DNA of 64,000 nt. It comes from Pristiophorus japonicus. Lineage: Eukaryota. The notes under the pieces were generated by a model. It was not told where the DNA came from and ran no database searches. It was given only the letters and a program-made list of their open reading frames with translations. The position numbers and the translations under genes are program-made. Each line of letters starts with the position of its first letter. Position 1 is the first letter of the stretch. Of this stretch, positions 14,995 through 47,880 are shown in pieces. The stretch covers positions 24,738,001 to 24,802,000 of the forward strand of contig NC_091981.1 in assembly GCF_044704955.1 (NCBI RefSeq). Direction: 5' to 3'.

Positions 14995-15110
14995 TTAAAA
15001 AAAGAGGAAACGCCTTGTGTTCCCAGTAAGAGGACCGCCTCCGCTCTGAGGGATAACAGAGCAGTCCTGTCAATCCGGGGGTGGAGGGGCGGCTGCTCAG
15101 GATTAAAAGG
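14995..15110 (+). promoter_or_regulatory. Putative serpinB promoter
   Basis: ETS/PU.1-like AAAGAGGAA at ~15001, GC box GGGGCGG at ~15086 and TATA-like GATTAAAA at 15101-15108, in non-TE sequence just upstream of a consensus donor. Confidence 0.5.
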
Positions 15111-15124
15111 CGCCACACAGGTGA

Positions 15125-15188
15125 CGCACAGAGCAAAGTGAAGACAGTGAGAGGAAGTGTTGGATGCTGAACGACAGCAGCGCATAAG
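15125..15188 (+). other. Putative non-coding exon 1 of the serpinB gene (start approximate)
   Basis: Consensus donor AAG|GTAAGT at 15188/15189. Clade B serpins characteristically have an untranslated exon 1. Confidence 0.55.
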
Positions 15189-15599
15189 GTAAGTGTCTTT
15201 ATATCTCTGCCAGGGGTTTTAGTGACACTACATTTCCGTGTCAGCGCTGCAAACCTTCGCTAACTTCATGATCAATTCCCTTTTAGTGCAGCGGATAAAC
15301 ACCGTCCACTCCCCCCATGTGTAATCTGTCCTTTCTCTCTTGTACTGTACTGTGAACAAGCGCTACCGGGGAGAGTGAAATACACATGGTTCCGCTTTCG
15401 GAGTTGTGATCGGGCTGTTCATTTCCGCTATGGGATAGACCAATATGTCAGAGATACCTGGACAGTAACTAAAGTCAATCCTGTGGCTGGGGGAAAACTA
15501 CAGAATGATCCACTCTGGGTGGAACTCTCAAGCGTTGTATCCGAGCCAACACGAGGGTATAATACAGAAACCCAGACGAACGTAAAAAGGTCAGATTGC

Positions 15600-17190
15600 T
15601 CGATTAAGAAATAGGGAAGATATGCAAGAACAGGAAGGTTAATTTAATGGAAGACGTCAATCAACCAAATAGAAATACCTGAGTTCTTTCCATTCAGAGT
15701 TGGTAAATGTGCGAGCCTTGAATTGGTATTCGCACAGGATCCAGACCAGTTATAGCACACCTGGGGGCCATCACCTATAGTGGGTAAAGTTTGACATGAA
15801 CTAGGAGTGAGATATATCCAAGACCAGCAGCTTGGTGTATAACTTTACGAAGGATCAATTCAATGAAATAAGGGGAAAATTACTGCCTATGGAATGGTGG
15901 AGAATGTTCAACAACATTTCAGTGGAGGACAACTGGAATACCTTTAAAGGTGTAATGCTGAAAGTGCAGGATCAAGACACACTGATCCTAAAGCTCAGGC
16001 TGAACAAACCTGTCCCAACATTGATTAACAAACAAACAGTAAGAGGACAGTCAGGGAAGAGGTATAAAACATGTAAGCAGAACCATAACGGAGGATTGTC
16101 AATATTGTGTGATTACTTCCTGCAAGTATTCCCATGGGAGGGTCTGAGAAACATGCGCACTCCAGAGTGAAGCAAAGTAACACTAACGACTCTTTGATAT
16201 GAATGAGATGAAGTCCTAGACAAGCTGAAAAGGCTCCCAATGAATAACTCACTGGGGTCTATGGTATATCCCCAAAGTGCTGAAAGAGCCTGAGGAGGAG
16301 ATATGAGGCACTGGCCACCATTATAAGTGATTTGCTGGACACTGGGGAGACACCAGTAGATTGAAAGCAGGTCAGTGTGGTGCCCATGTTCAGAAAAGGG
16401 GATAAAACGGACACAGGCAACTACAATCTTTATTCAGTGTAAAATACTGGAATCAAATCAGCAGGAATCAATATCTGGAGCATCTGTCTCACATTATCCG
16501 AGAGAACAGTAGGCTCCGGATTCAGAAGGGGACGATCCCACCTCAAAAAACCTATTTGTCCTCTTTGAGGATGAACCATCTCAATTGCACTTTGTAAAGT
16601 ATTATGCTATGCTGTACTTAGACTTCCAAAAGGCACCTCATAAAGTCCCTCATGTAAAGTTTGTAAATCAAACTCAATGCTGTGGGAATTCATTATAAAT
16701 CCTAGAAATGGATAATAAACAGGTTGATGAGTCGAAACAGCTGGAATATAATTCAAAAGCAGAGAAGTCATGTTAAATGTATATAGAACCTGGGTTAAAC
16801 CAAACTTGATGTGTTTTGCACAGTTCTCGTATCCACATATATTTTTTTAAGTATAGAAAAACAGTGGAGACGGTGGGAAAAAGATTTACAAGAATGATAC
16901 CAGAACTGAGTGTGCACAACTATCTGGAAAGACTGGGGCTCCTTTGTCTAGAAAATAGGAAACTGAGGGGTGACCTGACAGAAGTCTTTCAAATTATGAA
17001 GCAGTTTTATATGGTAAATGTACTGAAGATGTTTCCACTTGCGGGGAGTATAAAACTAACAGACATAATTATAAAATAGTCACTAATAAGGAATTCAGGC
17101 GTAACTTGTTTATTCAGAGTGTGGTGAGAATGTGGAACATGCTACCACAGGGAGTGGTTGAGGTGAATAGCATTCAAGGGGAAGCTTGAT
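15600..17190 (+). mobile_element. Old, heavily decayed CR1 LINE
   Basis: Remnants include LDFQKA-like gacttccaaaaggc, KRFTRMIPEL and LRGDLTEVFQIMK. Confidence 0.75.
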
Positions 17191-17205
17191 AATTAAATGT
17201 AAGAT

Positions 17206-20200
17206 AAATAAGAACATAAGAATTAGGAACAGGAGTAGGCCATCGAGCCCCTCGAGCCTGCTCCGCCATTCAAAAAGATCATGGCTGATCTGGCCGTGGA
17301 CTCAGCTCCACTTACCCGCCCGCTCCCCATAACCTTTAATTCCCTTATTAGTTAAAAATCTATCTATCTGTGACTTGAATACATTCAATGAGCTATCCTC
17401 AACTGCTTCCTTGGGCAGAGAATTCCACAGATTCACAACCCTCTGGGAGAAGAAATTCCTTCTCAACTCGGTTTTAAATTGGCTCCCCCGTATTTTGAGG
17501 CTGTGCCCCCTAGTTCTAGTCTCCCCGACCAGTGGAAACAACCTCTCTGCCTCTATCTTGTCTATCCCTTTCATTATTTTAAATGTTTCTATAAGATCAC
17601 CCCTCATCCTTCTGAACTCCAACGAGTAAAGACCCAGTCTACTCAATCTATCATCATAAGGTAACCCCCTCATCTCCGGAATCAACCTAGTGAATCGTCT
17701 CTGTACCCCCTCCAAAGCCAGTATATCCTTCCTTAAGTAAGGCGACCAAAACTGCACGCAGTACTCCAGATGCGGCCTCACCAATACCCTATACAGTTGC
17801 AGAAGGACCTCCCTGCTTTTGTATTCCATCCCTCTCGCAATGAAGGCCAACATTCCATTCGCCTTCCTGATTACCTGCTGCACCTGCAAACTAACTTTTT
17901 GGGATTCACGCACAAGGACCCCCAGGTCCCTCTGCACCGCAGCATGTTGTAATTTCTGCCCATTCAAATAGTATTCCCTTTTTTTGTTTTTTTTCCCAAG
18001 GTGGATGACCTCACACTTTCCGACATTGTATTCCATCTGCCAAACCTTAGCCCATTCGCTTAACCTATCTAAATCTCTTTGCAGCCTCTCTGTGTCCTCT
18101 ACACAACCCGCTTTCCCACTAATCTTTGTGTCATCTGCAAATTTTGTTACACTACACTCTGTCCCCTCTTCCAGGTCATCTATGTATATTGTAAACAATT
18201 GTGGTCCCAGCACCGATCCCTGTGGCACACCACTAACCACCGATTTCCAACCCGAAAAGGACCCATTTATCCCGACTCTCTGCTTTCTGTTCGCCAGCCA
18301 ATTCTCTATCCATGCTAATACATTTCCACTGACCCCGCGTACCTTTATCTTCTGCAGTAACCTTTTGTGTGGCACCTTATCGAATGCCTTTTGAAAATCT
18401 AAATACACCACATCCATCGGTACACCTCTATCCACCATGCTCGTTATATCCTCAAAGAATTCCAGTAAATTAGTTAAACATGATTTCCCCTTCATGAATC
18501 CATGCTGCGTCTGCTTGATTGCACTATTCCTATCTAGATGTCCCACTATTTCTTCCTTAATGATAGTTTCAAGCATTTTCCCCACTACAGATGTTAAACT
18601 AACCGGCCTATAGTTACCTGCCTTTTGTCTGCCCCCTTTTTTAAACAGATGCGTTACATTAGCTGCTTTCCAATCCGCTGGTACCTCCCCAGAGTCCAGA
18701 GAATTTTGGTAGATTATAACGAATGCATCTGCTATAACTTCCGCCATCTCTTTTCATACCCTGGGCTGCATTTCATCAGGACCAGGGGACTTGTCTACCT
18801 TGAGTCCCATTAGCCTGTCCAGCACTACCCCCCCTAGTGATAGTGATTGTCTCCAGGTCCTCCCTTCCCACATTCCTGTGACCAGCAATTTCTGGCATGG
18901 TTTCTGTGTCTTCCACTGTGAAGACCGAAGCAAAATAATTGTTTAGGGTCTCAGCCATTTCCACATTTCCCATTATTAAATCCCCCTTCTCATCTTCTAA
19001 GGGACCAACATTTACTTTAGTCACTCTTTTCCGTTTTATATATCTGTAAAAGCTTTTACTATCCGTTTTTATGTTTTGCGCAAGTTTACCTTCGTAATCT
19101 ATCTTTCCTTTCTTTATTGCTTTCTTAGTCATTCTTTGTTGTCGTTTAAAGTTTTCCCAATCTTCTATTTTCCCACTAACCTTGGCCACCTTATACGCAT
19201 TGGTTTTTAATTTGATGCTCTCCTTAATTTCCCTGGTTATCCACGGCTGGTTATCCCTTCTCTTACCACCCTTCTTTTTCATTGGAATATATTTTTGTTG
19301 AGCACTATGAAAGAGCTCCTTAAAAGTCCTCCACTGTTCCTCAATTGTGCCACCGTTTAGTCTGTGTTTCCAGTCTACTTTAGCCAACTCTGCCCTCATC
19401 CCACTGTAGTCCCCTTTGTTTAAGCATAGTATGCTCGTTTGAGACACTACTTCCTCGCCCTCAATCTGTGTTACTAATTCAACCACACTGTGATCACTCA
19501 TTCCGAGAGGATCTTTTACTAGGAGATCGTTTATTATTCCTGTCTCATTAAACAGGACCAGATCTAAGATAGCTTGCTCCCTTGTAGGTTCTGTAACATA
19601 CTGTTCTAAGAAACAATCCCGTATGCATTCTATGAATTCCTCCTCCAGGCTACCCCGTGCGATTTGATTTGACCAATCGATATGTAGGTTAAAATCCCCC
19701 ATGATTACTGCCGTTTCTTTTTCACATGCCTCCATTATTTCCTTGATTATTGCCCGCCCCACCGTGAAGTTATTATTTGGGGGCCTATAAACCAAGCCCA
19801 CCAGTGACTTTTCCCCCTTACTATCTCTAATCTCCACCCACAATGATTCAACATTGTGTTCATTGGAGCCAATATCGTCTCTCACAACTGCCCTGATATC
19901 ATCCTTTATTAACAGAGCTACCCCACCTCCTTTCCCTTCTTGTCTATCTTTCCGAATCGTCAGATACCCCTGTCCCAGTCTTGGCCACCCTGCAACCACG
20001 TTTCTGTAACGGCCACCAAATCATACCCATTTGTAATGATTTGTGCCGTCAACTCATTTACTTTATTTCGAATGCTGCGTGCGTTTAGGTAGAGTGTTTT
20101 AATACTAGTTTTTAATCCATGATTTTTAGTTTTGACCCCTCCTGCAGCCCCTTTACATTCAGTGGCCCTTTTTGTTTTTTGCCTTGGGTTTCTCTGCCCT

Positions 20201-20315
20201 CCACTTTTACTCATCTCCTTTCTGTCTTTTGCTTTTGTCTCCTTTTTGTTTCCCTCTGTCTCCCTGCATTGGTTCCCATCCCCCTGCCACATTAGTTTAA
20301 CTCCTCCCCAACAGC
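17206..20315 (-). mobile_element. Young CR1 LINE with near-complete ORF2 (APE + RT), few disruptions
   Basis: ORFs 19960-20292 (YLNARSIRNK), 18776-19999 (MGDFN, SDH) and 17302-18747 (RT, FADD), with a CATAAGAA tail at ~17210. Confidence 0.97.
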
Positions 20316-21348
20316 ACTAGCATATATAAACAAATAGAAGGATATATTGACGGGGTGAGATGAAGTAGGGTAGGATGAGACTCATGTGGAGCATAGACCA
20401 GTTGGTCTGAATGTCCTGTTTCTGTGCTGTAAAATTCTATGCAACACTGGTACCTCATGAATGGCACTGAAATAGCTAAGACTGATCTAAAAAGAGACCT
20501 AGATATCTTGGTAGACTCAATACTAAACATATATAAGTAATCAACAGAGCTACTAGAATGTAGAACTACATCACCAAAACAGTTGAATATAAATCAGAGG
20601 AAGTCAATGATCAAACCATAACTGCTCTGGTTAGATCACATTTCAAGTATTATGTTCAATTCTGGTCACCAAGATACAATTGAGAGCTTCTAGTGCTGGA
20701 GGCAGCAGAGAGAAGATCAATGAGACTGATCCTTGGTTGCTGTGGTCTGAGATATGAAAAAAGACCAGTCTGGAAAGGAGGAGTCTGAGAGGTAATATTA
20801 CAGAGTCAAAAGAAATAGTAAATGTTGTGGAAAAGGTAAATGTGGGAGTAAAACAAGGAGACAAAGGTTCCAACTCGTAAAAGATAACTTTAGGACTGAT
20901 ATCAGGACGTTCTTTTTAACATAGTGAGCAACACTTGGTTTAGATTTCCAGATGGAGTCGTACAGGTGAAAACCTAGGTTGCATTTAAGAAAGAATTCTA
21001 TAATGAAATGGGAGGATTGTAGAGCACCTGTGGATGGATGAACTAATGTGGGTCAAATGGTCTTCTCCTCTGGAATTATCTTGTGATCTGTCAATACATC
21101 TATCCCTATAATAGTTTGTGCACAAGGACAAATATTTGAAAGTAGTGATGGAAAGCTCATTTAAACTATCAGTGTATGTTGAGGAATATATATTTGCCTT
21201 TGTAGTTTGTTCTATGAACGCAAGGCAAAATGGCTGCTGCAAGCATTATGGGTAGGATAAAATGCAGGATAAAATGATGCAACATGGGTGAAGACAGTTA
21301 GTCTAAGAAAGTGATGCACACTTCTGCACGTAGCCTTTAGAACCCCGA

Positions 21349-23527
21349 GGGCTAGATTTTACACTTTTGTGCAGATCGACCAAAAATGAGTGTTATTTCT
21401 GGCATGGGTCGTAAAAATGGGTTTTCAGGTCGCCGCTTGTCGCCCATTTTCAAAGCCCTTAGTCTCCATTTTAAAAATTGGACGTTATCGCGAGCGATCT
21501 GAAATGGGCGTTAGCGTTAAATTTCTCTGACCTTCTGCTGTAAAGTGTCACCGTCCTTAGCAACGGCATGGCAACGCTCATTTCCCGTGATTCAGGAGGT
21601 CAGGGGTCATCCTTATATACGCAGAAGAGGAGACAGAGAGAGAGAGGGAGCAGAGAGGGACTGAAACGGTGAGTGGGTGTGGTGTGTGCTTGTTTAGCTG
21701 TTGTGGGAGCCACAAGGGAGATTCACCAGCAGCAAAAAGCCAACTAAGTACCAGGAACATAGCTGGCACTGAGTTTTTGTCCAACAAATAACACATAACA
21801 TGGAAGGGATGGAGGAGGCCCTGGAGCTGTTAACCAGGAACACTGGTGGCAGAGGGCTCCCAGTGATCCCAGAGCGCGGCACTGCACCCCAAGATGCTGC
21901 ACCCCCATTGCCATGAGAGCCAGGAGCAACATCTTGCTTCTAGCTAGGAGCACATTCCCACCTTGGGACCATCCTCTCATGTATCTGTCGAAGCAGCGGT
22001 TCGGCCGTCATCCCCCTCGCCCCAATGAAGCAGCATCTGAGGAGCTCCTCGGCCAGGCAGCTTGGAGGCAGGAGGGGAAGGGATAGAGGTGGGGAGAGAA
22101 GCAGCAGGGGCGGGGTGGGGGGGAAGGAAAGTGAGGTGCATGGCCGCAGGTGTTGTCTGGGGCATATTTTTAGGTTGCTGCTGCTATTTTGGGGGGAGGA
22201 TCGGTGCAAGGGGCGAGGGGACTACCTTGTTGGTTTGCATTTGTGTTCTATATTGTGGGAAATGGGGACCATTGTAATGATGTAAATGTGACAAATTTGT
22301 TGTGGGCTGGGGCGGGGGTGGGGTGGGCTGGTTTTTACAGATATACTTATCATTTCAGACAAATGGTCAGAGTAAATGTTTTTTATTTAACATAACCTTG
22401 TTGCGCATTGGCTCAGCTAGCTGCACTGTAGACACACTGGTGATTCCTTAATATGAAAGGGTATAATTACACTTAACTTCAATCAACTTAAACTTTAACT
22501 GTCACCAAGGTAATGCACACCATGGATGTATGACCTGCACACCCAGCAGTGTTTCAGCTTTGTAAATACCACCAACGTTATTTCAAGCAAAGCGCTCATT
22601 TATGAGCTCCTGACATCAGAGTCTTGCAGCTATGATGCCACCATCTCCCTTATGAGCTGGCATACCTCAGTGATAACCACTTTGTGGAAGCGCAGTCTCC
22701 TAAGGCAGGTAGTGTTGCACAAGTTGAGGTAAGACTGCTTCACCCTGTACTTGCGGGGGGTGTAACGTCTGATCCTCCTCATCGGTCTGTCACGTCTTGC
22801 ATTGGCCACATGATGCTGCCGAGTGTACCTTCTGCCATCTCGCGTCTGCAGCATGTGAGTCGTCATCAAGAGAGAGTGAGAAATGGCAGGCACCATTCCA
22901 ACAGCTATGTGTTTTCCACCGATTGTTCACAAAGAATAATGCCCCTACTAAGACATCTAGTAAATTCCAATCATCCACAGTATGAAAAGATGTTTGTTCA
23001 GATGTTCACAACACCTCCAATCACCTCCAGAGTAAATCTGAACTCCCCCAAGGTTGAAGCAGAGCAGCCTTTTAAATGATGCGACCTGCGATTTAGAACA
23101 TGGCGTCCATACCGCTGTGAGTAGTTCCGGTTAGTTCAACTTTTGAGCAGCATTTTTTTCGGTGAGCGATATTATCGGTGAAATGTGTACGAGATGCAGA
23201 CAGTTAGTTTTGGCAAATGTGGTCTTTATGACAAAAAACAGTGGGCGGTCAGTATTATTAAATCTCGGTGTTAATTACGTGCCGAAAGTAATGCTGGGTG
23301 ATATTCTGTGCGTTGGGATCGCCCATTCTGATGATTGCGCCCCGTATTATTTTTTTCAGCGGTACGCACATGCGGAAAATAACACTCGGCGATAAGTGAC
23401 CGAGAAATGGGAATCAGTTTCCATTTTGTGGCTAAGTGGGCGATATATGGGTATTGCACCTCATTCCAGCGTTAAAATTGATGTTAAGTGGGCGGTATGC
23501 ATGCAAAAATAATGGAAATTCTAGCCC
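21349..23527 (-). mobile_element. Internally deleted Harbinger DNA transposon
   Basis: Termini GGGCTAGATTTT and GGAAATTCTAGCCC; minus-strand transposase start CLRRLRFHKVVITEVCQLI (22630-22896). Same family as 36827-38760, in inverted orientation. Confidence 0.85.
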
Positions 23528-24830: not shown

Positions 24831-25245
24831 ATATATATCAGACAACTTTCTCCAGGGAGCTGTGCTGAGGCCTTACCATTTCCCTTTGTTTTATAATTTT
24901 TCCAAATATTGTACATATCTTGGTTTTGCTAGAGATGCCTTGAGACCGAAGTCTTTGTTTCACTGATGTTCATCAATCAACCGAGGTTGTTTCAGCACGT
25001 TGGTTAATGAGAAACAATAATATTTGAATCTTAGACATGTAGAGATTAAATAACTTGAGACCAATTCTACAGAGAAGATTGTAAATGTTTCACTGCAGAC
25101 CAACACTCAGTTTGCGATTCTTCATAAGCCAATTTCTCTGTTCAGTTGCAAACCCTGGTAATTCATTAACTTTCTTGAGAACCTTATTGTACCAAAATCA
25201 TTTTGGATATTTGTTTTATATTCATTTTTCCTGCAGTTTTAACCA

Positions 25246-25413
25246 ATGGAGGACCTGAGCAAAGCAAATTGCCATTTCACCCTTGACCTATTCAGAAAGC
25301 TGGTTGAAAAAAATCAAGCTGGCAACATCTTTTTTTCTCCATTCAGCATCTCCAGTGCGTTGGCCATGGTTTATCTTGGAGCAAAAAATAATACTGCATC
25401 TCAAATGGCAAAG
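25246..25413 (+). CDS. Clade B serpin (SERPINB1/leukocyte elastase inhibitor-like), first coding exon
   Basis: [56 protein letters not shown]: 56 codons, no signal peptide. Acceptor TTTTTCCTGCAG| at 25236 and phase-0 donor AAG|GTATGT at 25413/25414 match the ov-serpin exon 2 layout. Confidence 0.95.
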
Positions 25414-25519
25414 GTATGTATAAAATTACTCTGAGTAAAAGATGTAGCTGAATTTTTTTTAACTGTCTTGTGTGTGCATTTTGTTTGATAATATCAGTTT
25501 GCCAGAAGCATGGACTTAT

Positions 25520-26480
25520 GGGCTCGACCTTCCACTTCAGATCGCTGGGCTAGTGCCCATATATCGCCCAAAATGGCAGGCTATCGCCCATTTTGATTAA
25601 AAAGTGGAAAGTTGGGCCAGAACAGCGCCGGAAAATTGCTGGCCCAACTTTCCTGTCACATCGTTGAGGTGATCGCCCGCATCGCCCAGCGCAACTTTCA
25701 GCACATCGCCCACACATCGCCCGGCTTATCGCTCACTGAAAATATCACTGGAGAAAAGCTGCTATTAACTGGCCTTCCTCACAGAACTCAACACTACGGA
25801 CGCCATTTTGAACATTGGAGGAAGTGAGGAGGCAGCTTACACAAGGGGCTTATCATTTGTGAGTTATTTAAGGGTCGTTTACTGATAGATCCACTCACAT
25901 TTATATTTATATTTATATGTATATTTATAATTTATATTTTATATTTTCTTTAGTATAAAGGGCATTTATAACAACAGTGATAGTGATAATAGTGATAATG
26001 ATGGAGCCTGTAGCTTCTCTACCATTATTTGGTAGATTATAACGAATGCATCTGCTATAACTTCCGCCATCTCTTTTCATACCCTGGGATGCATTTCATC
26101 AGGACCAGGGGACTTGTCTACCTTGAGTCCCATTAGACTGTCCAACACTACAGCCATACACACTTACAGTGCCTCTGAGCTCCCTCTCACTCTGTCTCCT
26201 CTTCTGCACATGTCATCATGACCCTTGACCTCCTGAATCGCGGGAATCGTGCGTTGCCATGCTGTTGTTAAGGGCGGCCACACTTTACGGCAGTAGGTCA
26301 AAAAACTTTAACGCTACTGCCCATTTGATATCGCTCGCGGTAGTGCCCATTTTCAAAACTGTAAACTAGGTGTTTTGAGAAAGGGCGATGAGCCGTTGAT
26401 CTGAAAACCCTTTTTTAACGCCCACGCCGGAAATAATGCCCATTTTTGGGCGATAAGCACAAAAGTGGAGGTTCTAGCCC
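25520..26480. mobile_element. Non-autonomous Harbinger deletion derivative containing a CR1 filler
   Basis: TIRs GGGCTCGACCTTCCACTT and AAGTGGAGGTTCTAGCCC. The right arm is the inverse homologue of 21349-21700. Confidence 0.82.
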
Positions 26481-26919
26481 ATAAACTCATTGATAGTTTA
26501 TATGCATCTAATAGTAATAGGTATCATGTCTCAATATCCTACGTGTAACTAGCAGTAATACTTTAACTCACTGATACTCACCCTGAAACCATCGCCAGAA
26601 CCCCCCTGCACTGCACCAGGTGAGGTCAGTCTCTCCAGTTGATGCCACTTATAACAGGCCCGATCTCTCTCTCTATCTCCTTGGAATCTGGTTTGGACTC
26701 CGGTTCTGTGTGAAGGTGACAATTCTGAACTGCGAACCTCAGTCTGAGCTGATCTGTACTTGGTCTTCACATGTCAAACCCGGTCGGCACAGACCAACCG
26801 GAACCAAACCGAGAGATTGCGCAAAGGGCAGTGAGCTGAGTGTTTGGGGCACTTCTCACAGGTCACATTGTCCTAAACTCAGCTCAGTACCAACATTTCT
26901 AAACCGCTCCATGTGCTCG

Positions 26920-28155
26920 GTCTCAATAAATGAGGGATGGGAACCTATGCAGGGAGACAGAGGGAAGTAGAATAGGGGCAGAAGCAAAAGATAGAAAGAA
27001 GAAAAGTAAAAGTGAAGTGCAGAGAAACCCAAGGCAAAAATCAAAAAGGGCCACATTACAGCAAAATTCTAAAGGGGCAAAGTGTGTTAAAAAGACAAGT
27101 CTGAAGGCTCTGTGCCTCAATGCGAGGAGTATTCGTAATAAAATGGATGAATTAACTGCTCAGGCAGCAATTAATGAATATGATATAATTGGCATCATGG
27201 AGACATGGCTCCAGGGTAACCAAGGCTGGGAACTCAACATCCAGGGGTATTCAACATTCAAGAAGGATAGACAGAAAGGAAAAGTAAGTGGGGTAGCGTT
27301 GCTGATTAAAGAGCAAATTAACACAATAGAAAGGAAGGACATTAGCTTGGATGATGTGGAATCTGTATGGGTGGAGCTGCTGAATACCAAAGGGCAGAAA
27401 ACGCTAGTGGGAGTTGTGTACAGACCACCAAACAGTAGTAGTGTGGTTGGGGACAGCATCAAACAAGAAATTAGACATGCGTGCAATAAAGGTACAGCAG
27501 TTTACATGGGTGACTTTAATCTACATATAGATTGGGCTAATCTAACTGTTGCAATACGGTGGAGGAGGATTTCCTGGAGTGTATGAGGGATGGTTTTCAA
27601 GACCAATATGTCGAGGAGCCAACTAGAGGGCTGGCCATCCTAGACTGGGTGATGTGTAATGAGAAAGGACCAATTAGCAATCTTGTTGTGGGGTGCCGCA
27701 GGGCTCAGTGCTGGAACCCCAGCTCTTTACAATACACATCAATGATTTAGATGAAGGAATTGAGTGTAATATCTCTAAGTTTGCAGATGACACTAAGCTG
27801 GGTGGTGGTATGAGCTGTGAGGAGGATGCTAAGAGTCTGCAGGCTGACTTGGACAGGTTAGGTGAGTGGGCAAATGCATGGCAGATGCAGTATAATGTGG
27901 ATAAATGTGAGGTTATCCACTTTGGGGGAAAAACACGAAGGCAGAATTTTATCTGAATGGCGGCAGATTAGGAAAAGTGGAGGTGCAACGAGACCTGGGT
28001 TTCATGGTACATCAGCCATTGAAAGTTGGCATGCAGGTACAGCAGGCGGTGAAGAAGGCAAATGGTATGTTGGCCGTCATAGCTAGGGGATTTGAGTATA
28101 GGAGCAGGGAGGTCTTACTGCAGCTATACAGGGCCTTGGTGAGGCCTCACCTGGA
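26920..28155 (+). mobile_element. CR1 LINE with a large internal deletion and 3' truncation
   Basis: APE region (CLNARSIRNK..MGDFN) jumps at ~27690 to [10 protein letters not shown], and ends at ALVRPHL where the minisatellite begins. Confidence 0.93.
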
Positions 28156-28912
28156 CTCCCTTTCTTTCTGAGCCCCCATTCCCCCTCTCCCCTCTCCCCC
28201 ATTCCCCAGTCTCCCTCTCCCCCATTCCCCAGTTTCCCTCTCCCCCATTTCCCAGTCTCTCTCCCCCCGAGCCCCCATTCCCCACTCTCCCTCTCCCCAA
28301 ACCCCCATTCCCCAGTCTCCCTCTCCTCCATTCCCAGTCTCCCTCTCCCCGAGCCCCCATTCCCCAGTTTCCCTCTCCCCCATTCCTAGTCTCCCTCTCC
28401 CCAAGCCCCCATTCCCCACTCTCCCTCTCCCCGAGCCCCCATTCCTCAGTCTCCGTCTCCCCGAGCCCCCATTCCACAGTCTCCCTCTCCCCCATTCCCA
28501 GTCTCCCACTCTCTCACTCCCCCATTCCTCAGTCTCCGTCTCCCCGAGCCCCCATTCCCCAGTCTCCCTCTCCCCCATTCCTCAGTCTCTGTCTCCCCCC
28601 TAGCCCCCATTCCCCACTCTCCCTCTCCTCGAGCCCCCATTCTCCACTCTCACTCTCCCCGAGTCCCTATTCCCCACTCTCCCTCTCCCTCTCCCCGAGC
28701 CTCCATTCCTCAGTCTCCGTCTCCCCGAGCCCCCATTCCTCAGTCTCCGTCTGCCCGAGCCCCCATTCCCCACTCTCCCTCTCCCTGAGCCCCCATTTCC
28801 CACTCTCCCTCTCCCCGAGCCCCCATTCCTCAGTCTCCCTCTCCCGGAGCCCCCATTCACCAGTCTCCCTCCCCCTGAGCCCCCATTCCTCAGTCTCCCT
28901 CTCCCCAAACCT
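28156..28912. repeat. CT-rich minisatellite, ~21-29-bp units (CCCCATTCCCCAGTCTCCCTCTCCCCGAG)
   Basis: More than 25 degenerate tandem units are directly visible. Confidence 0.97.
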
Positions 28913-29054
28913 CCACGTGGTCGCTGCTCTCGGCTGCGGTGATCAAGTGACATCACCGAGCCAGAGGTTCCACTGAGCAACAGCCGGTGAGGTCACGGAG
29001 CGGGGGAGGGGAAGGGAGGAACTAACCACTGGATGGCTAATCTCAGACTTGGTC

Positions 29055-29080
29055 AGTTTCACTTTCCAGTTTCACTTTCA
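29055..29080 (+). promoter_or_regulatory. Two abutting ISREs of the IFIT promoter
   Basis: AGTTTCACTTTCC (29055-29067) and AGTTTCACTTTCA (29068-29080) match the AGTTTCNNTTTCN consensus. Confidence 0.93.
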
Positions 29081-29116
29081 GGAACCAATTCCTCAAAATC
29101 AGGTGATCCCAGTGGC

Positions 29117-29124
29117 TATAAAAA
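29117..29124 (+). promoter_or_regulatory. TATA box of IFIT
   Basis: TATAAAAA ~37 bp downstream of the ISREs and 85 bp upstream of the ATG. Confidence 0.85.
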
Positions 29125-29201
29125 TATTCAGGAAGACAAACATTGCACAGTGTTTCGGCTGATCTGCTGACTGAAGTACAAGTGAAATCCAGATCACCAT
29201 C

Positions 29202-29206
29202 ATGAG
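29202..29206 (+). CDS. IFIT: IFIT coding exon 1 (ATG AG)
   Basis: accatcATGAG|GTCAGT. The phase-2 donor fits the acceptor at 33752 to give M-S-N-T-L. A near-ATG-only first exon is the canonical IFIT structure. Confidence 0.88.
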
Positions 29207-33752: not shown

Positions 33753-35205
33753 CAACACACTGAACGATTGTTTGAAAGCGAAACTCGGCGAGCTTCAATG
33801 TCAATTCACGTGGGCCCCACAGAAAGACAGTATTGACTTGGAGGACATGAAGTATAGATTACACAATTTAATACAGGCTGGTGTGAAATATCAGGCCATG
33901 TCTTACAACCACCTCGCTTTTGTAAACTGTCTGCAAGGCAACTGTGAAGAGGCAATTCAAAACTTAAATGAAGCTGAAAAAATTCTGAGGGAAAATCATG
34001 AACATGAATTTAAAAGAAGAAGCATCATCACCTATGGAAACTATGCCTGGGTATATTATCACATGGGCCAACTGACAGAGGCCCAGTCCTACCTCGACAA
34101 GCTGGAGAGGATCTGTAAACAATTGACTGATGGCTCTCGGTATACAGCGCTGATACCTGAAGTATACGGGGAGAAGGGTTGGTCACTGTTGAGTTCTGCT
34201 GCTCAATACTATGAAGAGGCAAAGGAATGTTTTGAGAAAGCTCTGGAGGAAGATCCTGATGATACTGAATGGAATGCTGGCTATGCGACTGTTCTGTTTC
34301 GTCTGGAAGGAGGTCCTGGTATCTCAGAGAATGGTGAACCCAGTCAATCAGTGAAGCAGTTGCGACGTGTGCTGGAACTTGATCCAGATGACTCTGTCGC
34401 CATGGTGCTGTTGGCTCTAAAACTGCAAGAGTCCAAACAAAAGGAGAAAGCACTGCAATTAGTTGAACAAGCATTGCAGAAGTCCCCTGATCTTCCATAT
34501 GTAACTCGTTATGCAGCAAGATTTCTGAGAAAAGAAGGAGATGTGGAAAAAGCTATGGAGCTGTTGAAGAAAGCATTAAAAATTATCCCACACTCTTCCT
34601 TCTTACACCACCAAGTAGGTCTGTGTTACAGAAACAAAGTATATCAGTTGATCAAACATCCAGGCAGCAAAGACCCTCGCAATCCTGCTTTTCAACAGAA
34701 AGCTGAATTGATCAATCAATGCAAGTACCATTTTGAAAAGGCATTTGAGCAGAAGCCATCATTTATTTTTGCACGATTAGATTTTGCAAAAATCTGTTCA
34801 TTAAATGGGGAATATCTCAAAGCAGAGAAGATCTACAGCGATTTCCTGCAATTAGAAGATAATCATCCTGATAAGCAGTCCGTATATTTGCAGATTGGGT
34901 TATTTGAACTGCACCAGAAAAGATCGGAATCAAATGCCATCAACTATTTTCTGGAAGGACTTAAATTTCAACGTGACACAAAAGCTTGGCAATTGTGTCA
35001 TGAAAACTTGAGAAAGATTGCAACAAAACAAATTGACAGGAATCCCAGAAACAGCAAGGCCTTTGGTGTTCTTGGGTTACTGCACCAGCAGGATGGGAAG
35101 AAGTGCAAAGCTATTGAATGCTTTGAAAAGGCCTTGGAGTTTGATTGTGGCAATGAAGAATATCTAAGTGCTCTTTGTAAATTACGCCTTTCTATCAGTC
35201 AATGA
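33753..35205 (+). CDS. IFIT: Interferon-induced protein with tetratricopeptide repeats (IFIT1/IFIT5-like), exon 2; ~485 aa with exon 1
   Basis: Uninterrupted ORF with IFIT hallmarks L..LQCQFTW, YNHLAFV, ITYGNYAWVYYHMG, VYGEKGWSLL, AKECFEKALEEDPD and further TPRs. Acceptor TTCTCTTACAG| at 33752. Confidence 0.96.
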
Positions 35206-35233: not shown

Positions 35234-36033
35234 TGGGTGGAGTTTCTGCTTTGGCGCAATTGGGAACTTAGTTGTAAATTACGCTACATAGGTTACAGTT
35301 CAAGTTTCCGCTAGAATGCATTTGCATACTCACAGACATAAAATCTTTAATGAACCAGCCTTTCACCTGCGGGAAACCTGATTTTAAATGACTGAAAATG
35401 ACTTAAAGGTAGATATACAGAACCATTTATTAGTTTCATTGTTGTACACTAGTCAGTTTGTAAGTAAATTAAATATAATAATTTGTAAAACTTTTAAATC
35501 ATGCCTACTAGTGCCCAGGGGCCTAAGAAAATGAGCTCAATTTGAAAACCCTCCTCAAACGGGCGCAATTGGCAGAAACTCGCCATCCTCGTTATTTCGA
35601 TCTGTGGGCGGGGCCAGTTTTGTAGATTTTTAAACCAGCGTTAAAGATCACGGAATACTTGATTTACGCTTGATGTAAATCTTGCTCGAGTTCCCGTGAT
35701 CTTTTGTGCTGGTTCGGCAGATTTCACCTGGATTGTACTGATAAAACGAGGGCAAATTAGCAGAGGCTCTATCCCAGTGTTTGAAAGATGCTGTGATGCT
35801 CTCTCATCTATGAACAAGTTTGGCAGGATACTCATCCAACTTATATTATTTAATATACACTGTTAATACTTTCAGTCGAAGCGGCCTTTTGTTTGTAAAT
35901 GCATCGATATTTGTGAGTACAGTCCCCACCGATTTCTCTGCTTTACACAGGATGGCCGGTATCACGCGTGAAGAAGGATTATTTTCTCTCTCTCCCTGTA
36001 ACGAGCCGCCCGCAGCTCCCTGATTTCTAGCCC
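35234..36033. mobile_element. Probable decayed Harbinger-type MITE in the IFIT 3' UTR
   Basis: Begins GGGTGGAGTTTC and ends GATTTCTAGCCCC, similar to the other Harbinger termini here. Confidence 0.5.
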
Positions 36034-36110: not shown

Positions 36111-36200
36111 AATAAAGCTTAATAGTTGCAGATATAGATTTTCCAACCAGAATTATTAATTTGCTGTAATATCAGAGACTGTGTTAAAATAACCAATAAA
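36111..36200 (+). terminator. Candidate IFIT polyadenylation signals
   Basis: AATAAA at 36111-36116 and 36195-36200; the second is followed by GT-rich sequence. Confidence 0.55.
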
Positions 36201-39185: not shown

Positions 39186-39995
39186 GAAAGATGAGGTGCT
39201 GTTCCTCAAACTTGCATTGAGCTTCACTGGAACATTGTAGGAGACCGAGCACGGAGAGGTCAGAGTGGGAATGGAGTGGGGAATTAAAGTGACAGGCGCT
39301 TAGAAGCTCAGGGTCACCCTTGCGGACTGAACGGAGGTGTTCCGCAAAGTGTTCACCCAATCGACGCTTGGTCTCCCCAATGTAGAGCAGACCACATTGT
39401 GAGCAGCAAATACAGTATACTACATTGAAAGAAGTATAAGTAAATCGCTGTTTCATCTGGAAGGAGTATTTGGGACCCTGGATAGTGGGAAGGGAAGAGG
39501 TAAAAGGTCAGGCGTTGCATCTCCTCTGCTTGCACGGAAAGGTACCGTGGGAAGGGGAGGGGGTGCTGCGGTTGACTGCAGAATGGACCAGAGTGGCCGC
39601 GGGCGGAGCGGTCACTTCGGAATGCTGAGACGGGAGTGGAGGGGAAGATGTGATTGGTGGTGGGATCACGCTGGAGGTGGCAGAAATGCCAGAGGATGAT
39701 CTGTTGAACATGAAGGCTGGTGAGGTGAAAGATGAGGACAAGGGAACCCTGTCATGGTTCTGAGAGGGAGGGGAATGGGTGAGATCAGAGGTGTGCGAAA
39801 TGGAACAGACACGGTCGAGGGCCATGTTAACCACGGTGGGGGGGGAAATCCTCTGTTGAGGAAAAAGGAAGACATGTCAGAGGCACTAGTGTGAAAGGTG
39901 GCGTCGTCAGAGCAGATGCGATGGAGACGGAGAAACTGGGAGAATGAAATGGAGTCCTTACAGGATGCAGGGTGGGAGGAAGTGTGGTCCAGGTA
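39186..39995 (-). mobile_element. Penelope-like retroelement fragment (RT C-terminus + GIY-YIG endonuclease)
   Basis: SHPASCKDSISFSQFLRLHRICSD and NVVYCICCSQCGLLYIGETKRRLGEHFAEH. Confidence 0.92.
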
Positions 39996-40016
39996 GTTTA
40001 ACATTAGTATAGGCAA

Positions 40017-41260: not shown

Positions 41261-42389
41261 CAGAAGATAGATACTGCAGGGAATTTAATGGCCAGAGTGA
41301 TCTCCTGGACTAGTTTTGATTGCCTAGATGAGTCAGAGAGGAAATTCCCAGATTTTGTTTCCCAAATTGACCTGGGTTTTTAATGTTTTTTTGCCTCTCC
41401 CAGGAGATCACATGGTTTTGGGTGAGGTGGAATGTATATGTTGGCTTGATGGACCAGTCCGTCATTGTTCGTATGTTCATATCTTCATATTCTAACCCTC
41501 CAGAATTGTCTTGGAGTCTCCATATATTGATGATTAATCTCCAACACACTCCTGTGAGCAACTGAGGAGAACATTCACGGGGACATGAAATAAATTGAGT
41601 GTTCTTAAAATTTTCTTTGAATCCTTTTGTTTATTAGTAATATAAGTATTGGAGGTGGGGAAAAAGGCTGTTTGACTAACAGTTAAGAATCATCCAATCA
41701 GGTACTGAAGAGTCTGTTTGCTTTCCAATTGGTGCGGGAAGGCGGGGCGACGCGATGATGTGCGTATCTGGTGATCAATTGCGGGAGCTCGGGGGTGGGG
41801 CTATTGGAGGTGAGAGTTCATGTGACAAAACCTCCAGGAATACGCCCAAACAGAGTTGGCAACACTACTTCAACCATCCCAGCAGTTTTTTTCATAATAT
41901 CTTTGTTGTATCATTATGTCTTCCTGAGCTGGGTTTTCCTCCAGGAAGGGTTCATGTCAGAGGTGGGTCAAGCGGGACTTCTACTGAACACTCTGACCCA
42001 CGTGAACGGACCCATTTTCCCAGGTTAGAGCTCATTAGACCTGCAGGGCAGGCTCCCAGCAGGATCTCCGTTACACTTCAAGGAGCCACCGCTGATAGCC
42101 AGGGAATGGTGGCATCGCACAGCAACACCAGAAAGAGGAAGATCCGCCATTAACTGGGACAGAAACACTCCAAAGATTAGCAGCACAATTTTACTTACCG
42201 CTTGTGAATCAGCTGGCGTTTGTATAAACTTAGTGACTGTGGACAGAAGAGAGGGAGAGGTGCCCATTGTTGGGCACTGTTGCCCACTGTCCATAAGGGC
42301 GTTCTGCTACTTCCCTTGTTGACCACGGTTGAGCCACCTTCCCCATTTTATTTTTACGCCAAACAGGGATGTACAATTGTTGAAGTTCT

Positions 42390-43800
42390 TGCATATCGTG
42401 GCTGTCGGCCAGTTGTTGTATCTCTTATGTTTTCTCCATCCACCACCTGTTCTTTAGCTCTGGGGTTTTTTGTTGGACCTCTGCCTTGAGCCCTCTATAA
42501 CGCTGCTTTGCTGCCCCCGAGTTGGGTTGTTGCTTGAGGCTCAGAAATGCTCTGCGCTTGCGATCTATTAGTCCTTGGATCTCCTGATCATTTTCATCAA
42601 ACCAGTTCTGGTGTTCTCTGGTTAAGTGACCAATTATCTCTTCAGAGGCACTGGTTATAGAGGCCTGGAGGGTACACCAAGCGCTGTGGGCATTCAGCAT
42701 CTCAGGGTCTTCAAGGCACGCCAGATTACTTGTGAGGCGCTGGCTGTATAGGGCACTTTTAGCTGGGTCTTTAAGTGCCCCGGCATTAACATTTTTGCGG
42801 CACTGCTTCTGCTGCCCTTCTGCTTTGGGGCTATGTTAATGTCGATGATGGATTGGATCAGACGGTGGTCCGTCCAGCAGTCGTCAGCTGCTGTCATGGT
42901 GATCCCTGGCTCAGACGATGACATAGTCGAGCAGGTGCCCGGGTTTGGAGCAAGGGTGTTGCCACGATGCCTTGTATTTATCCCTCTAGCAGAACAGGCT
43001 GTTGGTGATGAGGAGTTCATGTTGCAGACATTTTTTCAGGAGTAGGGTACCGCTGGAGTTGGCTTTCCCTAACCCCTCTCTGCCAATCGCACCTCCCCAG
43101 AAGGCTGCGTCTGCTGACTCTGGCATTAAAGTCACCTAGGAGAATCAATTTGTCGCCCATGGGGACGCGGGACATGGATGTCTTGAGCTTGGAATAAAAA
43201 CCCTCTTTAACCTCATCCGTGTTTGGGCGTATGCACTGTGGCACATTGGTTCCGGGATAGGGTAAGACTAAGAGTCATGAGGTGTTCGTTAACCTCGCAG
43301 GGGGAGTCTTTGAGGCGGTCAACCAGCTCATTTTTGATGGCGAAGCTGACTCCATGAAGGCGGCGTTCTTCCTCTGGTTTTCCTTTCCAGAAAAATGTGT
43401 AACCTCCACCATGTTCCTTGAGCTGGCCTTCCCCTGCCCGCGGGTCTCGCTTAGGGCGGCGATGTCGAAGTTAAAACTTCTAAGTTCCCGGGCAACTAAT
43501 GGCGGTGCGGCATTCCAGCCTGTTGCTGTTGGAGTTGTCCATGAGGATCCTGACATTCCAGGTCCCGAACTTCATATTAACGAAGTGGAAGATGCCTGTG
43601 CGTGAGTTGTTTTAATGTGGTGTGGCAGCTGCACACCGGCAACCATACAGGCTTAGCTGAGCAAGGTCTTGGTCCAGTGGCAAGGGGGTCCAAGACAACT
43701 GGAGACCAGGAACTGCTGTATGAGCCTAATTGCCTACGGTGAGGTGTTGGCCGCAAGCTTGGCGCTGAGTAGCGTCATTGATGGTAGGTGACCCGAGGCT
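42390..43800 (-). mobile_element. RTE-clade LINE 5' part (endonuclease)
   Basis: LVARELRSFNFDIAALSETR, DKLILLGDFNARV, CWTDHRLI and HQNWFDENDQEI. Confidence 0.9.
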
Positions 43801-43854
43801 TGTTTGGGGGGGCAGGCCTTAGGAAGGTCAGCTGTCCGCTGGGGTTCCGAGGGA

Positions 43855-44140
43855 TGTTTTAAAAAGTTTCTTCCAAGTTTTCCAAAGTTATTTAAAAGTT
43901 TCTCCAAAGGTTTCCAAGTTGATTAAAAGTTGAAAAGTTTTAAAGTATTTCCAAATTGTTTAAAAAGTTACTCCGGTTGATTAAAAGTTTAAAAAATAGA
44001 TTAAGAGTTGATTAAAAGTTGATTAAAAAGTCTAAAATGTAACTCAGTAGTAGATTATAAAAGTTTTCCCAAATTGTTTATAAGTTTAAAAGTTGATTAA
44101 AAGTTAAAAAATTGATTAAAAGTTGATTAAAAATTTAAGA
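43855..44140. repeat. Degenerate AT-rich short tandem repeat (AAAAGTTGATT-like)
   Basis: Many visible aaaagtt(gatt) units. Confidence 0.8.
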
Positions 44141-44329
44141 TGTCAGTCAGTAGTAGGAATTCTGGCCCCTCGAAGAAATTACGACAGCTTGGTCACTTCG
44201 GCCGGTTCAACGCAGGTACCGGACTCTCTTCGATCGGTTCGACGCCGACTCCAGAGTCCCTTCGGCAGGTTTTAAAAAGTCTTGGATGATGTCCCGTGAA
44301 GGCTGCAAGCCCCGAGCAGGAGCCACAGG

Positions 44330-44465
44330 CCGGTGCAGGGGTCCCTCCGGCCTGGGATAGAAGCGGACCGGTGCAGGGGTCCCTCCGGCCTGGGATAGAA
44401 GCGGACCGGTGCAGGGGTCCTTTCGGCACAGGATAGAAACAGGCCGGTGCGGGGTCCCTTCGGCG
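44330..44465. repeat. 38-bp GC-rich tandem repeat, about 3.5 copies
   Basis: CCGGTGCAGGGGTCCCTCCGGCCTGGGATAGAAGCGGA units. Confidence 0.9.
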
Positions 44466-45250
44466 GGGTCCTAGGAGGTTATCCACATGTCTTGTTCAAC
44501 TGGCGGCAACACCGGAGTAGGCTGTACGTGCAGATCAAAGGCATGTAATGGAAAAAGCACCTCAGCTCACCTACATATCAAATGAAGGGATGGGGGGGGG
44601 AACTTTCTGGTGGCGCTCTGAGGAGTGAGGTTCTGAAGTTTGCCTTCCCTACCCGATTTTTCTCCCAACCCGATTTTGGATGGTATAGCAGAAGTAAATC
44701 CAGACCCTTGTTGCTCACTCAGTGGTGGATGTGTGAGTTGACTGCCATTTCATTGTTAATTCTATAGTCACCATTTCTAATTCTACCAATCGGGAGATCA
44801 CTGCGAGAAATGTTATTAATTTGCGGAAAAACAAAATATAAAGGTCTAGAAATTTGTTAGTCCCCGATAACAGGTACGGAAATCGCGATATGCGATCAAC
44901 CCACGCCAGTTGAGGGGAATGCAGGCAGAAAAGAACTTCATACTGCCTGCTCATTTCCATGATTATGGCATTCAGCCCAGTGCCGAATGAGCTGCTGAGT
45001 GGCTGAATGCTCAGCAGGGGTCTCAAGTTCGTGCGAAGCTAGTACCACATAAAGCTACTTAAAGGCAGTCTATATTTCTGAAAGGGGACGTGCATTCTGT
45101 CTGCAGCAGCTTACTGAACTGGCTGGGGATGACAAACCACATGGCTGATCACTACAGAATGGAGCAGGGGATGCAGGACAAAGTAGTTGGTAATCTTCGG
45201 CTGGGTAGCCAAGTACCAAAAAGGGGAACTGAAGTGGGGCTTTTGCGCTC

Positions 45251-45858
45251 TGTTATAATGAAAGGGTTAAGAATGGGTCTCGGGACTTAAATAAGCTAAT
45301 AGGCTTTTGCAATGGTCAACTTGTTAGGTAGCTTAATGGGCAGTTGAGATAACATTAGGAATAACATGTTGACTTTGCAATGACCAACGGATGTAAGCTG
45401 TGTGACTTGGAGACTGAACCACAGGGGCCGAGGAGGGCAAGACAACAGAACAATGGGGCAGAAGTAAAATGTTAACAGGATACTATCTGGCCTGAGCAAA
45501 GGTCATAGTAGCAGATTGTGGTCACATCAGTCTTATACTTCTTCGGTAATGGAGGTATACCTTATGTTACGCGAGCTAGGCATAAAACATAGGCGAGTGA
45601 TTATGTGACGTGGAAGGCAAGTAACCAATCAGGCACTGTGCACGCGGGCTTTAGGCTAATCAAACTGTGCCAAAGGATTGTGCACGAGGCTGAATATTTA
45701 TGATTAAGTGTATAAAAGGTTGTCTGAAACTACATATCGTTGGACGGTGACCTGGCTAGACCTATAGCAGGTCACCTCCCCACCGGTGCGAATAAAGACT
45801 GCTTGAATCTTCGATCCCACACCTGGAGTTGAGTGCTTATTTCAAATACTCCACTATA
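45251..45858 (+). mobile_element. Possible solo LTR
   Basis: Starts TGTTATA, with CCAAT at ~45625, TATAAAAGG at 45711 and AATAAA at 45791 in U3-R-U5 order. The 3' end and TSD are not clean. Confidence 0.5.
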
Positions 45859-47745
45859 GTCTCAACTCAGCTTTCTCCCTCACCCATGAGTTCACTGCCC
45901 TCCTATCCTCCCTTAATCTCTCCCTCCATATAAACTCCCCTACCCATATTCACAGCCCCTGTCCCAACCTTGCCAGCTCACTTGGCCTCGCTGCTCCCAC
46001 CATGTCAGTCGCAGATAAGGCCATCTCTGATCACTTCCATGTATTGCTCATCACACACTTCCACCTTTCCCCTCCCGACTCCACATACTTCTGTGTCCAC
46101 CCCTGGAAAAAAACTCTCCCCAAGTCACTTGCAATTTCAAATTCTCAGTTGTCTAGCCTTTGGTCCTCCATTCACCACGACAGGTGTGCAGCTACTGATC
46201 TGCTAAATCACACCCTTAGCTTTATATTTGATGCTCTTGTCCCCAATATAAACAATTCTCTATTTCTCCCTTGTTATTCTCCCTGATATAGCATTCATCG
46301 CTGGTCCTTTAAGTCCAAGGGACACAGACTTTTGACATTTTATGGCAGACAAATCGTTTCACTATTCATCGCCAGATCTGACTGGACCATATCAAGCATT
46401 ATCAGACACTCTCTCCTCGGTCAAAAAATGTTCAATTTTCCAAGATCATCCTGGAACCCAATGATAAACCCTGGCTTCTATTCTCCTTGACAATCTCCTT
46501 CAATCCCTCTCCCTGTCTCTTCCACCCTCATCTCCAATAACAACTGCGAGGAAGTCATGGACTACTTGGTCACGAACATTGAGACCATCTGTTCAGCTGC
46601 GTCTGCTACTTACGTCCTTTGATCTAGCCCACCAGGACAAACTTCACCTCTGGTTTCCTTTTGCCAAAGCCCTGAACTTGCAGCTTTCCCTAGTTTCTCT
46701 CCAATCACGCCTCATGCCTACTCCATGCTCACCTTGTTCAATGGATCCACCTCCTGCTCACTCGAACTCTATTTTCACCAAATTGATAACCACCCAACTT
46801 CCTTTCCTGGCCCCCATATTAGCTGATATTGTTAAATCTTCTCAGGTACTGTCCCCCTCCCTTTCACATCTGCTGTCATCACCTCTCTCCTCAAAACAAT
46901 CATCCCTTACACCTCTTTCCCTGAAAATCACAGACCAATCACCAAACTCCTTTTCACTCCAAAGTCCTTGAATGTGCCATTGCCTCCCACATCCATGCCG
47001 ATCTTTCCCGCAGTTCCATTTTTGAAACCCTGATATCAGTTTTCCTCCGCTGCTACAGTACTGAAACAGCCCTTATCAAAGTCACAAATGATATCCTGTG
47101 TGACTGTGACTGTGACAAACTATCCCTCTTCATAGTTCTCGACCTATCTGCAGCCTTTGACACAGTTGACCACAACACCACTTGCAACGCCTCTCCTCCC
47201 TCCTCCAGCTGGGAGGGACTGCACTCGCCTGGTTCCATTCTTATCTATCCAGTCATAGTCAGACAATCACCTGCAATGGATTCTTTTCCCGCAGCATTAC
47301 CTCTGGAGACCCCCATGGATCTATCCCTGGCCCCCTTCTTTTCTCTTCGTCATGCTGTCCCTCGGCGACATCATCCCACAACACATATTCAGGTTCCATA
47401 TCTATGCTGACAACAGCCAGCTCTACCTCACTACCACCTCCCTCAACCCCTTCACAGTTTCTAATTGTTCACATTGTCCACCTCGGTAACGTCACACAAC
47501 TGCACTCCTGCCTCAGCTCAGCTGCTGCTGAAACCCTCATCCATGCCTTTGTTAGCTCTGGCCTTGACTATTCCAGCGCTCTGCTGGCCGGCTGCCCATC
47601 TGCCACCCTCCATAAACTTGAATTCATCCAAAACTGCTGCCCGTATCCTAACTCACACCAAGTCACATTCACACATCACCCCTTTGCTCACTGACATACA
47701 TTGGCTCCCAGCCTGGCAACGCCTCAATTTTAAAATTCTCATATG
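45859..47745 (+). mobile_element. Decayed L2-type LINE
   Basis: STETALIKVTND, LDLSAAFDTVDH, AETLIHAFVSSGLDYSSALL and HITPLLTDIHWLP. Confidence 0.9.
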
Positions 47746-47792
47746 GTGAGAAGGCAGATTATAAAACAGTAACAGTTAATTTTGTTTACCAG

Positions 47793-47880
47793 GTTCAGTT
47801 TCTACTTTCACATTCAAGAAACCAATAATCAGGAAATGACAACACACCGCGTACTGTGCTCGGTCAACTCTCCACTGGAG
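47793..47880 (+). pseudogene. Probable serpinB exon 3 (CD-loop type) carrying a 4-nt frameshift
   Basis: Acceptor TTTTGTTTACCAG| and donor GAG|GTAAAG bound 88 nt of non-TE sequence. Removing 4 nt near the start gives a phase 0-0 exon V(L/F)YFHIQETNNQEMTTHRVLCSVNSPLE. Confidence 0.45.

Follow-up and report, generated by a model that had tools for sequence, protein, structure and literature searches.

This report concerns a 64,000-nucleotide stretch of the genome of the sawshark Pristiophorus japonicus (the window; G000:C5:24738001-24802000 of a 5.9-Gb genome), in which the first two exons of a clade-B serpin gene precede, on the same strand, a complete gene of the antiviral IFIT family. C5 is the contig that carries the window and C3 the contig that carries the home cluster of IFIT genes. 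Positions given without a contig name are those of the window, and features lie on the plus strand unless stated otherwise. A first-pass annotation had read this order as an IFIT gene nested inside a serpin gene. The arrangement is real and apparently undescribed, but it is not the nested gene that was proposed.

Serpin exons and IFIT gene of the window

The serpin part begins with intergenic spacer and promoter region of the serpin cluster (9991..15100), 80-94% identical to the spacers upstream of other C5 serpin first exons. A TATA-like box (15102-15108) and the non-coding exon 1, whose start is putative, together occupy 15102..15188. The donor after 15188 (AAG/GTAAGT at 15188/15189), recognized in the first-pass annotation, holds good, as it is kept upstream of the intact serpins. 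Nine array copies of exon 1 are 95.6-100% identical, with the donor intact in all 11 copies inspected; the window's copy differs from that of the intact gene at 4 of 91 nt. Exon 2 (25237..25413), also correctly annotated, has its ATG at 25246, comprises 56 codons and ends with a phase-0 donor. It matches the Pfam Serpin family with E 2.8e-17, its top PDB match being leukocyte elastase inhibitor. A stub of intron 2 follows (25414..26027), terminating within a dispersed repeat. Clade-B serpins of the 7-exon SERPINB1 type have a non-coding exon 1 and a phase-0 intron after exon 2 (PMC1308813, available in part). The window copy has both features, and the intact neighbouring serpins share with that type six coding exons and a clustered locus, whereas the window copy consists of exons 1-2 only: exons 3-7, with the reactive loop, are absent for ~410 kb downstream of its exon 2. 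Both the serpin and the IFIT peptides of the window are 100% identical to Pristiophorus japonicus database proteins; the individual genes are therefore already annotated, as leukocyte elastase inhibitor-like and IFIT5-like (IFIT5-like in UniRef).

The IFIT gene is preceded by a region derived from the C3 cluster (26028..29054), with a low-complexity tandem repeat at about 28170-28915. The promoter (29055..29124) carries two sites that fit the consensus of the interferon-stimulated response element (ISRE; 29055-29067 and 29068-29080), a CCAAT box and a TATA box (29117-29124). These are the two ISRE-consensus matches in a 306-bp region, and 0 of 5000 shuffles reach two; homologous promoters occur on C3 at 81-86% identity. 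Exon 1 (29125..29206; putative start) holds the 5' untranslated region plus ATG AG, exon 2 runs from 33753 to the stop codon at 35205, and poly(A) signals are recognized from their sequence at 35468, 36111 and 36195. The 485-aa product matches TPR families in Pfam and has IFIT5 as its top PDB match (E 1e-105). The gene thus resembles the vertebrate IFIT family, a group of TPR proteins of ~480 aa, in its two exons, the first coding ATG plus two bases, and in its two ISREs near the TATA box (PMC3688568, available in part). It lies outside the CH25H-PANK1 cluster, which is on C3, while the copy is on C5; this does not affect its family membership. The complete two-exon gene with ISREs described in the first-pass annotation is thus borne out, including the 29206>33753 splice, found in three sequencing runs (see below).

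A different outcome awaited the segment 47793-47880, which had been proposed as serpin exon 3. The true exon 3, as seen in an intact serpin, is 138 nt long and begins ALHFDQ. The phase-0 frame of 47793-47880 stops after 11 codons, and its sole open frame matches neither a Pfam family nor, by BLASTP, the intact serpin (E 1.2). The segment aligns at 75-87% to IFIT promoters and first exons on C3, and it lies within a dead IFIT-type promoter and first exon (47745..47990; nine array copies) where ATGAG at 47928-47932 is followed by AT, not GT. With a stop in frame, no serpin homology and relatives among IFIT-type DNA on C3, it is rejected as a serpin exon; lack of serpin homology is the finding that the first-pass annotation had itself named as fatal to nesting. 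Likewise, tblastn with four queries of serpin residues after exon 2 gave only 13 weak matches (E 1.8-9) in C5 24.671-25.173 Mb. A nested gene has exons of its host on both sides. Here the downstream segment is IFIT-derived, and the next real exon 3 downstream is preceded by its own exons 1-2.

A tandem array on C5

The first-pass annotation overlooked a tandem repeat: positions 1-14917 recur at 48687-64000, with self-matches of 97.9% and 99.2%. The interval 48687..64000 is the start of the next tandem unit, and 1..5164 is the end of the IFIT-locus-derived block of the previous one, made of pieces of a 3.16-kb repeat that is in tandem on C3, interrupted by mobile elements. Blastn matches this last block to C3 at 78-93%, the last match ending at C5 24743164.

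A map covering 774 kb of contiguous C5 places these pieces in order. At its left end stand a broken serpin, a complete serpin (24648279-24670295), an older IFIT gene (24699723; 76-77% protein identity) and the first array IFIT (24723067), which has no serpin exon 2 in front of it and the same promoter as the other copies. Eight repeats of exon 1, exon 2, junction and IFIT follow, together with one 17.6-kb duplication of IFIT only. The ninth exon 1-2 continues into intact exons 3-7 (gene at 25161306-25189941, exons 3-7 at C5 25.173-25.190 Mb), so that the downstream serpin part, thought to have decayed, is in fact intact; beyond it lie three further serpin copies, one of them broken. The array contains 10 intact IFITs, each 0-6 nt of 1452 nt from the window's copy, and 8 serpin stubs; with the older gene, C5 has 11 IFITs. 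All 8 stubs retain exon 1 and its donor, and in 7 of them exon 2 is intact and 100% identical to that of the intact gene, the remaining one having a 1-nt insertion. Full units measure 48.6-52.2 kb and are 0.36-0.92% apart, some with insertions of their own. Head-to-tail units more than 90% identical, with one common junction in 8 copies, are what defines a tandem segmental duplication. The array splits the serpin cluster by ~0.5 Mb. In addition, seven more serpin exon-2 matches lie on the minus strand at C5:24130038-24431241, giving ~20 exon-2 copies in the whole cluster.

The inferred duplication breakpoint is at 26027..26028, with serpin intron 2 on its left and, on its right, a long interspersed nuclear element (LINE) upstream of the first array IFIT. 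On the left, 25414-25724 is 99% identical to intron 2 of the intact serpin, and 25700-26030 belongs to a repeat found throughout the genome (84-88% identity), 8 array copies being ~100% identical. On the right, 26028-26151 is 99.2% identical to C5 24711579-24711702 (the LINE, after which the sequence upstream of the first array IFIT matches at 99%). Since the repeat continues to 26030 in many genomic copies and the LINE match starts at 26028, the junction was placed at 26027/26028. Position 25724 was considered as the breakpoint and rejected because other genomic copies of the repeat extend through 26030; this part was probably lost from the intact gene. The same junction is present 8 times in the array at 99.3-100%, which points to a single origin followed by unequal crossing-over.

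Origin of the IFIT block

Of 90 IFIT matches in the genome, 78 are on C3 (316.3-319.5 Mb), 11 on C5 and one on a small contig; these counts are a floor, with 88 of 158 candidates scored. The C3 cluster has a CH25H-like gene on one side (316.147 Mb) and a PANK-like gene on the other (319.77-319.82 Mb), and CH25H and PANK1 are two of five IFIT neighbours conserved from fish to mammals (PMC3688568, as far as available). At least 50 of the C3 matches, which cover exon 2 only and may include haplotype duplication, are near full length and free of stops, and blocks repeated ~216 kb apart were noticed in the examined part of the cluster.

The segment 24696.5-24743.2 kb of C5 is colinear with C3 at ~80-92%. 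The part from the older IFIT through the array promoter corresponds to C3 319.500-319.517 Mb, and the intron, exon 2 and 3' flank correspond to C3 319.315-319.350 Mb. Coding and non-coding DNA are thus colinear with a donor locus and introns are kept, as in an interchromosomal segmental duplication. Exon 2 of the array IFIT is 90-91% identical to the nearest C3 copies and exon 1 is 81-86% identical; synonymous divergence (dS) from the six nearest intact C3 copies is 0.135-0.158. The C3-C5 divergence, set against near-identical array units, indicates that the move long preceded the amplification. Frameshifts, stops and an insertion have broken the C3 copies with the 3' flank of the array gene, so the C5 gene is the intact survivor among the copies examined (less than a quarter of the C3 cluster). 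A FastTree protein tree of 53 sequences, without the broken C3 copies, places the array copies on a branch of their own outside any C3 group and joins the older C5 IFIT to C3 319506233 with weak support (0.79).

Serpin-type spacer DNA lies on both sides of the IFIT block, which suggests that the block landed between serpin genes, perhaps replacing one. In agreement with the first-pass annotation, the serpin-IFIT linkage does not look ancestral: the home cluster is on C3, and IFITs and these serpins are on apparently different contigs in 16 of 16 other cartilaginous fish. This last evidence is indirect, the comparison resting on cluster representatives and the best 120 of 428 IFITs, with no close relative of the sawshark among the 16 fish. 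The proposal that an IFIT gene had moved as DNA into serpin intron 2 stands for the move, which took intron, ISREs and flanks along, and fails for the insertion into intron 2, the first two IFITs being intergenic.

Synteny of the serpin locus itself was also followed. GMDS is linked to SERPINB1, and a GMDS-like gene is found at C5 26.19-26.73 Mb. The WRNIP1-type family matched contig C274 only, and the search with the NQO-type family gave no match. A lone exon match to the GDP-mannose-dehydratase family lies at C5:25315028-25315156, just past the last serpin and ~0.9 Mb before the main GMDS-like exons.

Transcripts

Runs X1, X2 and X7, all from one study, were judged to be RNA-type from the GT..AG joint, and X3 to be DNA-type. 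In the IFIT copies, exon 2 is joined to the gene's own first exon: the 29206>33753 splice occurs with zero mismatches in contigs of X1, X2 and X7 (three of four runs) and not in X3, and every inspected contig that crosses the IFIT acceptor comes from IFIT exon 1. In the RNA-type runs, the variants at 34277 and 34881 correspond to different assembled IFIT copies.

The IFIT acceptor had been suspected of intercepting serpin transcripts. No chimera of serpin exon 2 and IFIT was seen among the inspected contigs of X1, X2 and X7, contigs being prone to drop rare forms, and in each of the three the inspected loose ends of serpin exon 2 continue from the donor into exon 3. Stubs and intact gene have an identical exon 2, so the exon 2-exon 3 contigs fit either source. 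One 274-bp contig of X7 lies in stub-specific intron 2; its depth (~10) equals that of the IFIT intron, and it fits either read-through or genomic DNA. Joined to serpin exon 2 (phase 0), IFIT exon 2 (phase 2) would be read out of frame, with a stop after 27 further codons (56+27 aa), and translation of exon 2 reading through into the intron predicts 62 aa. The stubs are likely passengers whose transcripts, if made, are predicted to yield dead-end peptides of 62 or 83 aa.

Two probable successive duplications and their alternatives

The window is very probably one ~49-kb unit of a tandem array that resulted from a dispersed segmental duplication and a recent tandem amplification. In the first and older step, a ~47-kb block of the C3 home cluster that held two IFIT genes, their introns and promoters, and a dead first exon would have been copied into the space between two clade-B serpin genes of C5. 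In the second and recent step, a tandem duplication would have joined a break in intron 2 of the following serpin, ~600 bp from the start of that intron, to one in the LINE that precedes the second IFIT. The unit then probably rose to nine copies by unequal crossing-over, and there was one more duplication, of a 17.6-kb segment with the IFIT alone. The adjacency of exon 2 and IFIT, and with it the apparent nesting, would date from the later tandem duplication, and the likely effect of the array is a higher IFIT dosage.

Several observations weigh against this scheme. Repeats amounting to ~17 kb obscure the left edge of the block, and the spacer homology overlaps on both sides, so that the first step was no clean insertion and may have replaced a serpin gene. 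The contigs bridge 25724 only and not 26027/26028, the examined stretch having ended at 26030. One of three X2 loose-end contigs seems to differ (agreement 0.74), a further 7 serpin loose ends and 720 IFIT-region loose ends fall outside those inspected, and the three RNA-type runs, whose kind is not on record, come from a single study. As to selection for dosage, the ten array copies differ at 8 amino-acid-changing and 3 silent sites, numbers that fit neutrality, and intact frames are to be expected in copies this young.

Selection was considered for the array IFIT in particular. Its ratio of amino-acid-changing to silent substitution rates (dN/dS) is 0.58-0.82 to ten near paralogues on C3 and C5 and 0.36 to a distant one; as this range overlaps that among seven C3 pairs (0.32-0.98), selection specific to the array IFIT was rejected.

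It is unlikely that the serpin stubs are functional, their promoters driving or boosting IFIT in serpin-expressing cells so that the pairing itself was amplified. The conservation of exon 1 and its donor in all the stubs, and of exon 2 in all but one, would be accounted for, as would the position of exon 2, whose end precedes the IFIT promoter by 3.6 kb on the same strand; the X7 contig over stub-specific intron 2 may be counted here too, but its depth equals that of the IFIT intron and it may be genomic DNA. The out-of-frame join to IFIT exon 2 and the exclusive use of IFIT exon 1 by the inspected contigs that cross the acceptor speak against such a role, and the first array IFIT has the same promoter with no stub before it. 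In a related and doubtful proposal, the amplified unit would be a regulatory fusion in which the serpin promoter, 14 kb upstream on the same strand, adds a leukocyte-type input to that of interferon. If true, the ten antiviral genes of the array would be a battery favoured by selection and armed in advance in white blood cells, in a shark with ~60 IFITs.

Formal nesting remains: nine of the 10 array IFITs have a serpin exon 2 before them and, at a distance of as much as 410 kb, the sole downstream exon 3 after them. That this is also nesting in effect, the stubs serving as alternative 5' ends spliced over up to 410 kb to a single exon 3 with up to nine IFITs inside a working serpin intron, we consider very improbable. 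The identity of exon 2 in 7 of 8 stubs to that of the intact gene and the RNA-type contigs that join exon 2 to exon 3 agree with it, but the intact serpin genes fully explain these joins, and such a transcript would have to pass the IFIT poly(A) signals in every unit.

There is very little to be said for an assembly artefact, in which C3 sequence was mis-joined into C5 or the array over-expanded. The units are indeed more than 99% identical and the junction is unbridged by the contigs examined, but the C5 IFITs are ~10% from all C3 copies compared, the units differ from one another and bear their own insertions, and public runs with two sample labels contain both variants specific to single copies and intron DNA specific to the stubs. 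As for a direct move of IFIT into serpin intron 2 with decay of the downstream serpin, the order of exon 1, exon 2 and IFIT is real within the window, but the window lacks an exon 3, the first two IFITs stand between genes and the serpin downstream has stayed intact, and the idea can be dismissed with near certainty.

The predicted RNA-binding pocket

The IFIT copies are predicted to be interferon-induced, RNA-binding antiviral proteins. The window's protein was aligned over its full length (E 1e-105) with human IFIT5 (PDB 3zgq) and IFIT1 (5w5h). In the alignment, 9 of 14 RNA-pocket positions are identical to IFIT5. The equivalents of R186, Y250, R253, Y254, R260, H287, Q288 and R294 are retained, and D33/R37 match D34/R38 of IFIT1. 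Among the differences, Ser replaces the K150 equivalent, Leu that of Q41 and Arg that of K257. K150 is important for 5'-triphosphate binding (PMC9677429, PMC13197388; both available in part). Its loss was rejected as a distinctive feature of the window's IFIT, Ser being common there in cartilaginous fish: among the best 120 of 428 IFITs, 53 have Ser and 39 have Lys or Arg. Ser, Thr, Gly or Asn occupies the position in 79 of the same 120 sequences, with variation among paralogues, and R186 and R260 are nearly fixed. This variability across the paralogues of cartilaginous fish hints at a diversified specificity for RNA 5' ends.

Comparison with other loci

The dispersal of IFIT genes by segmental duplication and their lineage-specific expansion are already known. 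In the text available from PMC3688568, vertebrate IFITs have, as here, a home cluster beside CH25H and PANK1 and lineage-specific expansion, with 8 genes in elephant shark, 10 in zebrafish and 11 in frog. The sawshark differs by its second locus of 11 intact copies inside a serpin cluster. Together with ~50 further stop-free, near-full-length matches on C3, this seems to give it ~60 IFITs, far above those 8-11. The closest parallel in the same text is dog IFIT5L, an IFIT copied to another chromosome as a DNA segment with introns; it is a singleton that came with SLC16A12 and PANK1, whereas here two IFITs moved without the neighbours tested and one of them was amplified ten-fold with part of an unrelated gene. 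We found no description in print of an IFIT array in a serpin cluster or of an elasmobranch IFIT expansion, in a search that left most subscription journals and supplements outside.

The locus shows an antiviral gene family founding a second site inside another immune gene cluster, with recent growth and with steps that can still be read. With its near-identical units it lends itself to direct tests of copy-number variation between individuals and of promoter capture. It also calls for caution, as a tandem partial duplication can pass for a nested gene in a single window. Nested genes and variable-first-exon loci have repeated 5' exons upstream of shared 3' exons, with other genes between; here, by contrast, the repeated exons are near-identical.

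Further observations

The 3.16-kb unit met at the start of the window occurs in tandem runs of up to five at C3:317555001-317575000, and it contains a LINE-like fragment and an IFIT-promoter-like start. Two copies of it, with the same IFIT-promoter-like start and with no IFIT match there, are present at C15:125466123-125470524, possibly another dispersal of IFIT-locus DNA. Within the home cluster, at C3:319181488-319181711, an IFIT-type first exon is folded back as an inverted duplication of ~70 bp. The window also holds what we take to be broken remains of long terminal repeat (LTR) retrotransposons, with gag, protease, reverse transcriptase and integrase motifs, on the minus strand at 5426-9687 and 54066-58775 and on the plus strand at 1708-3330 and 50285-52339; these LTR-retrotransposon-like remains travel within the duplicated unit.

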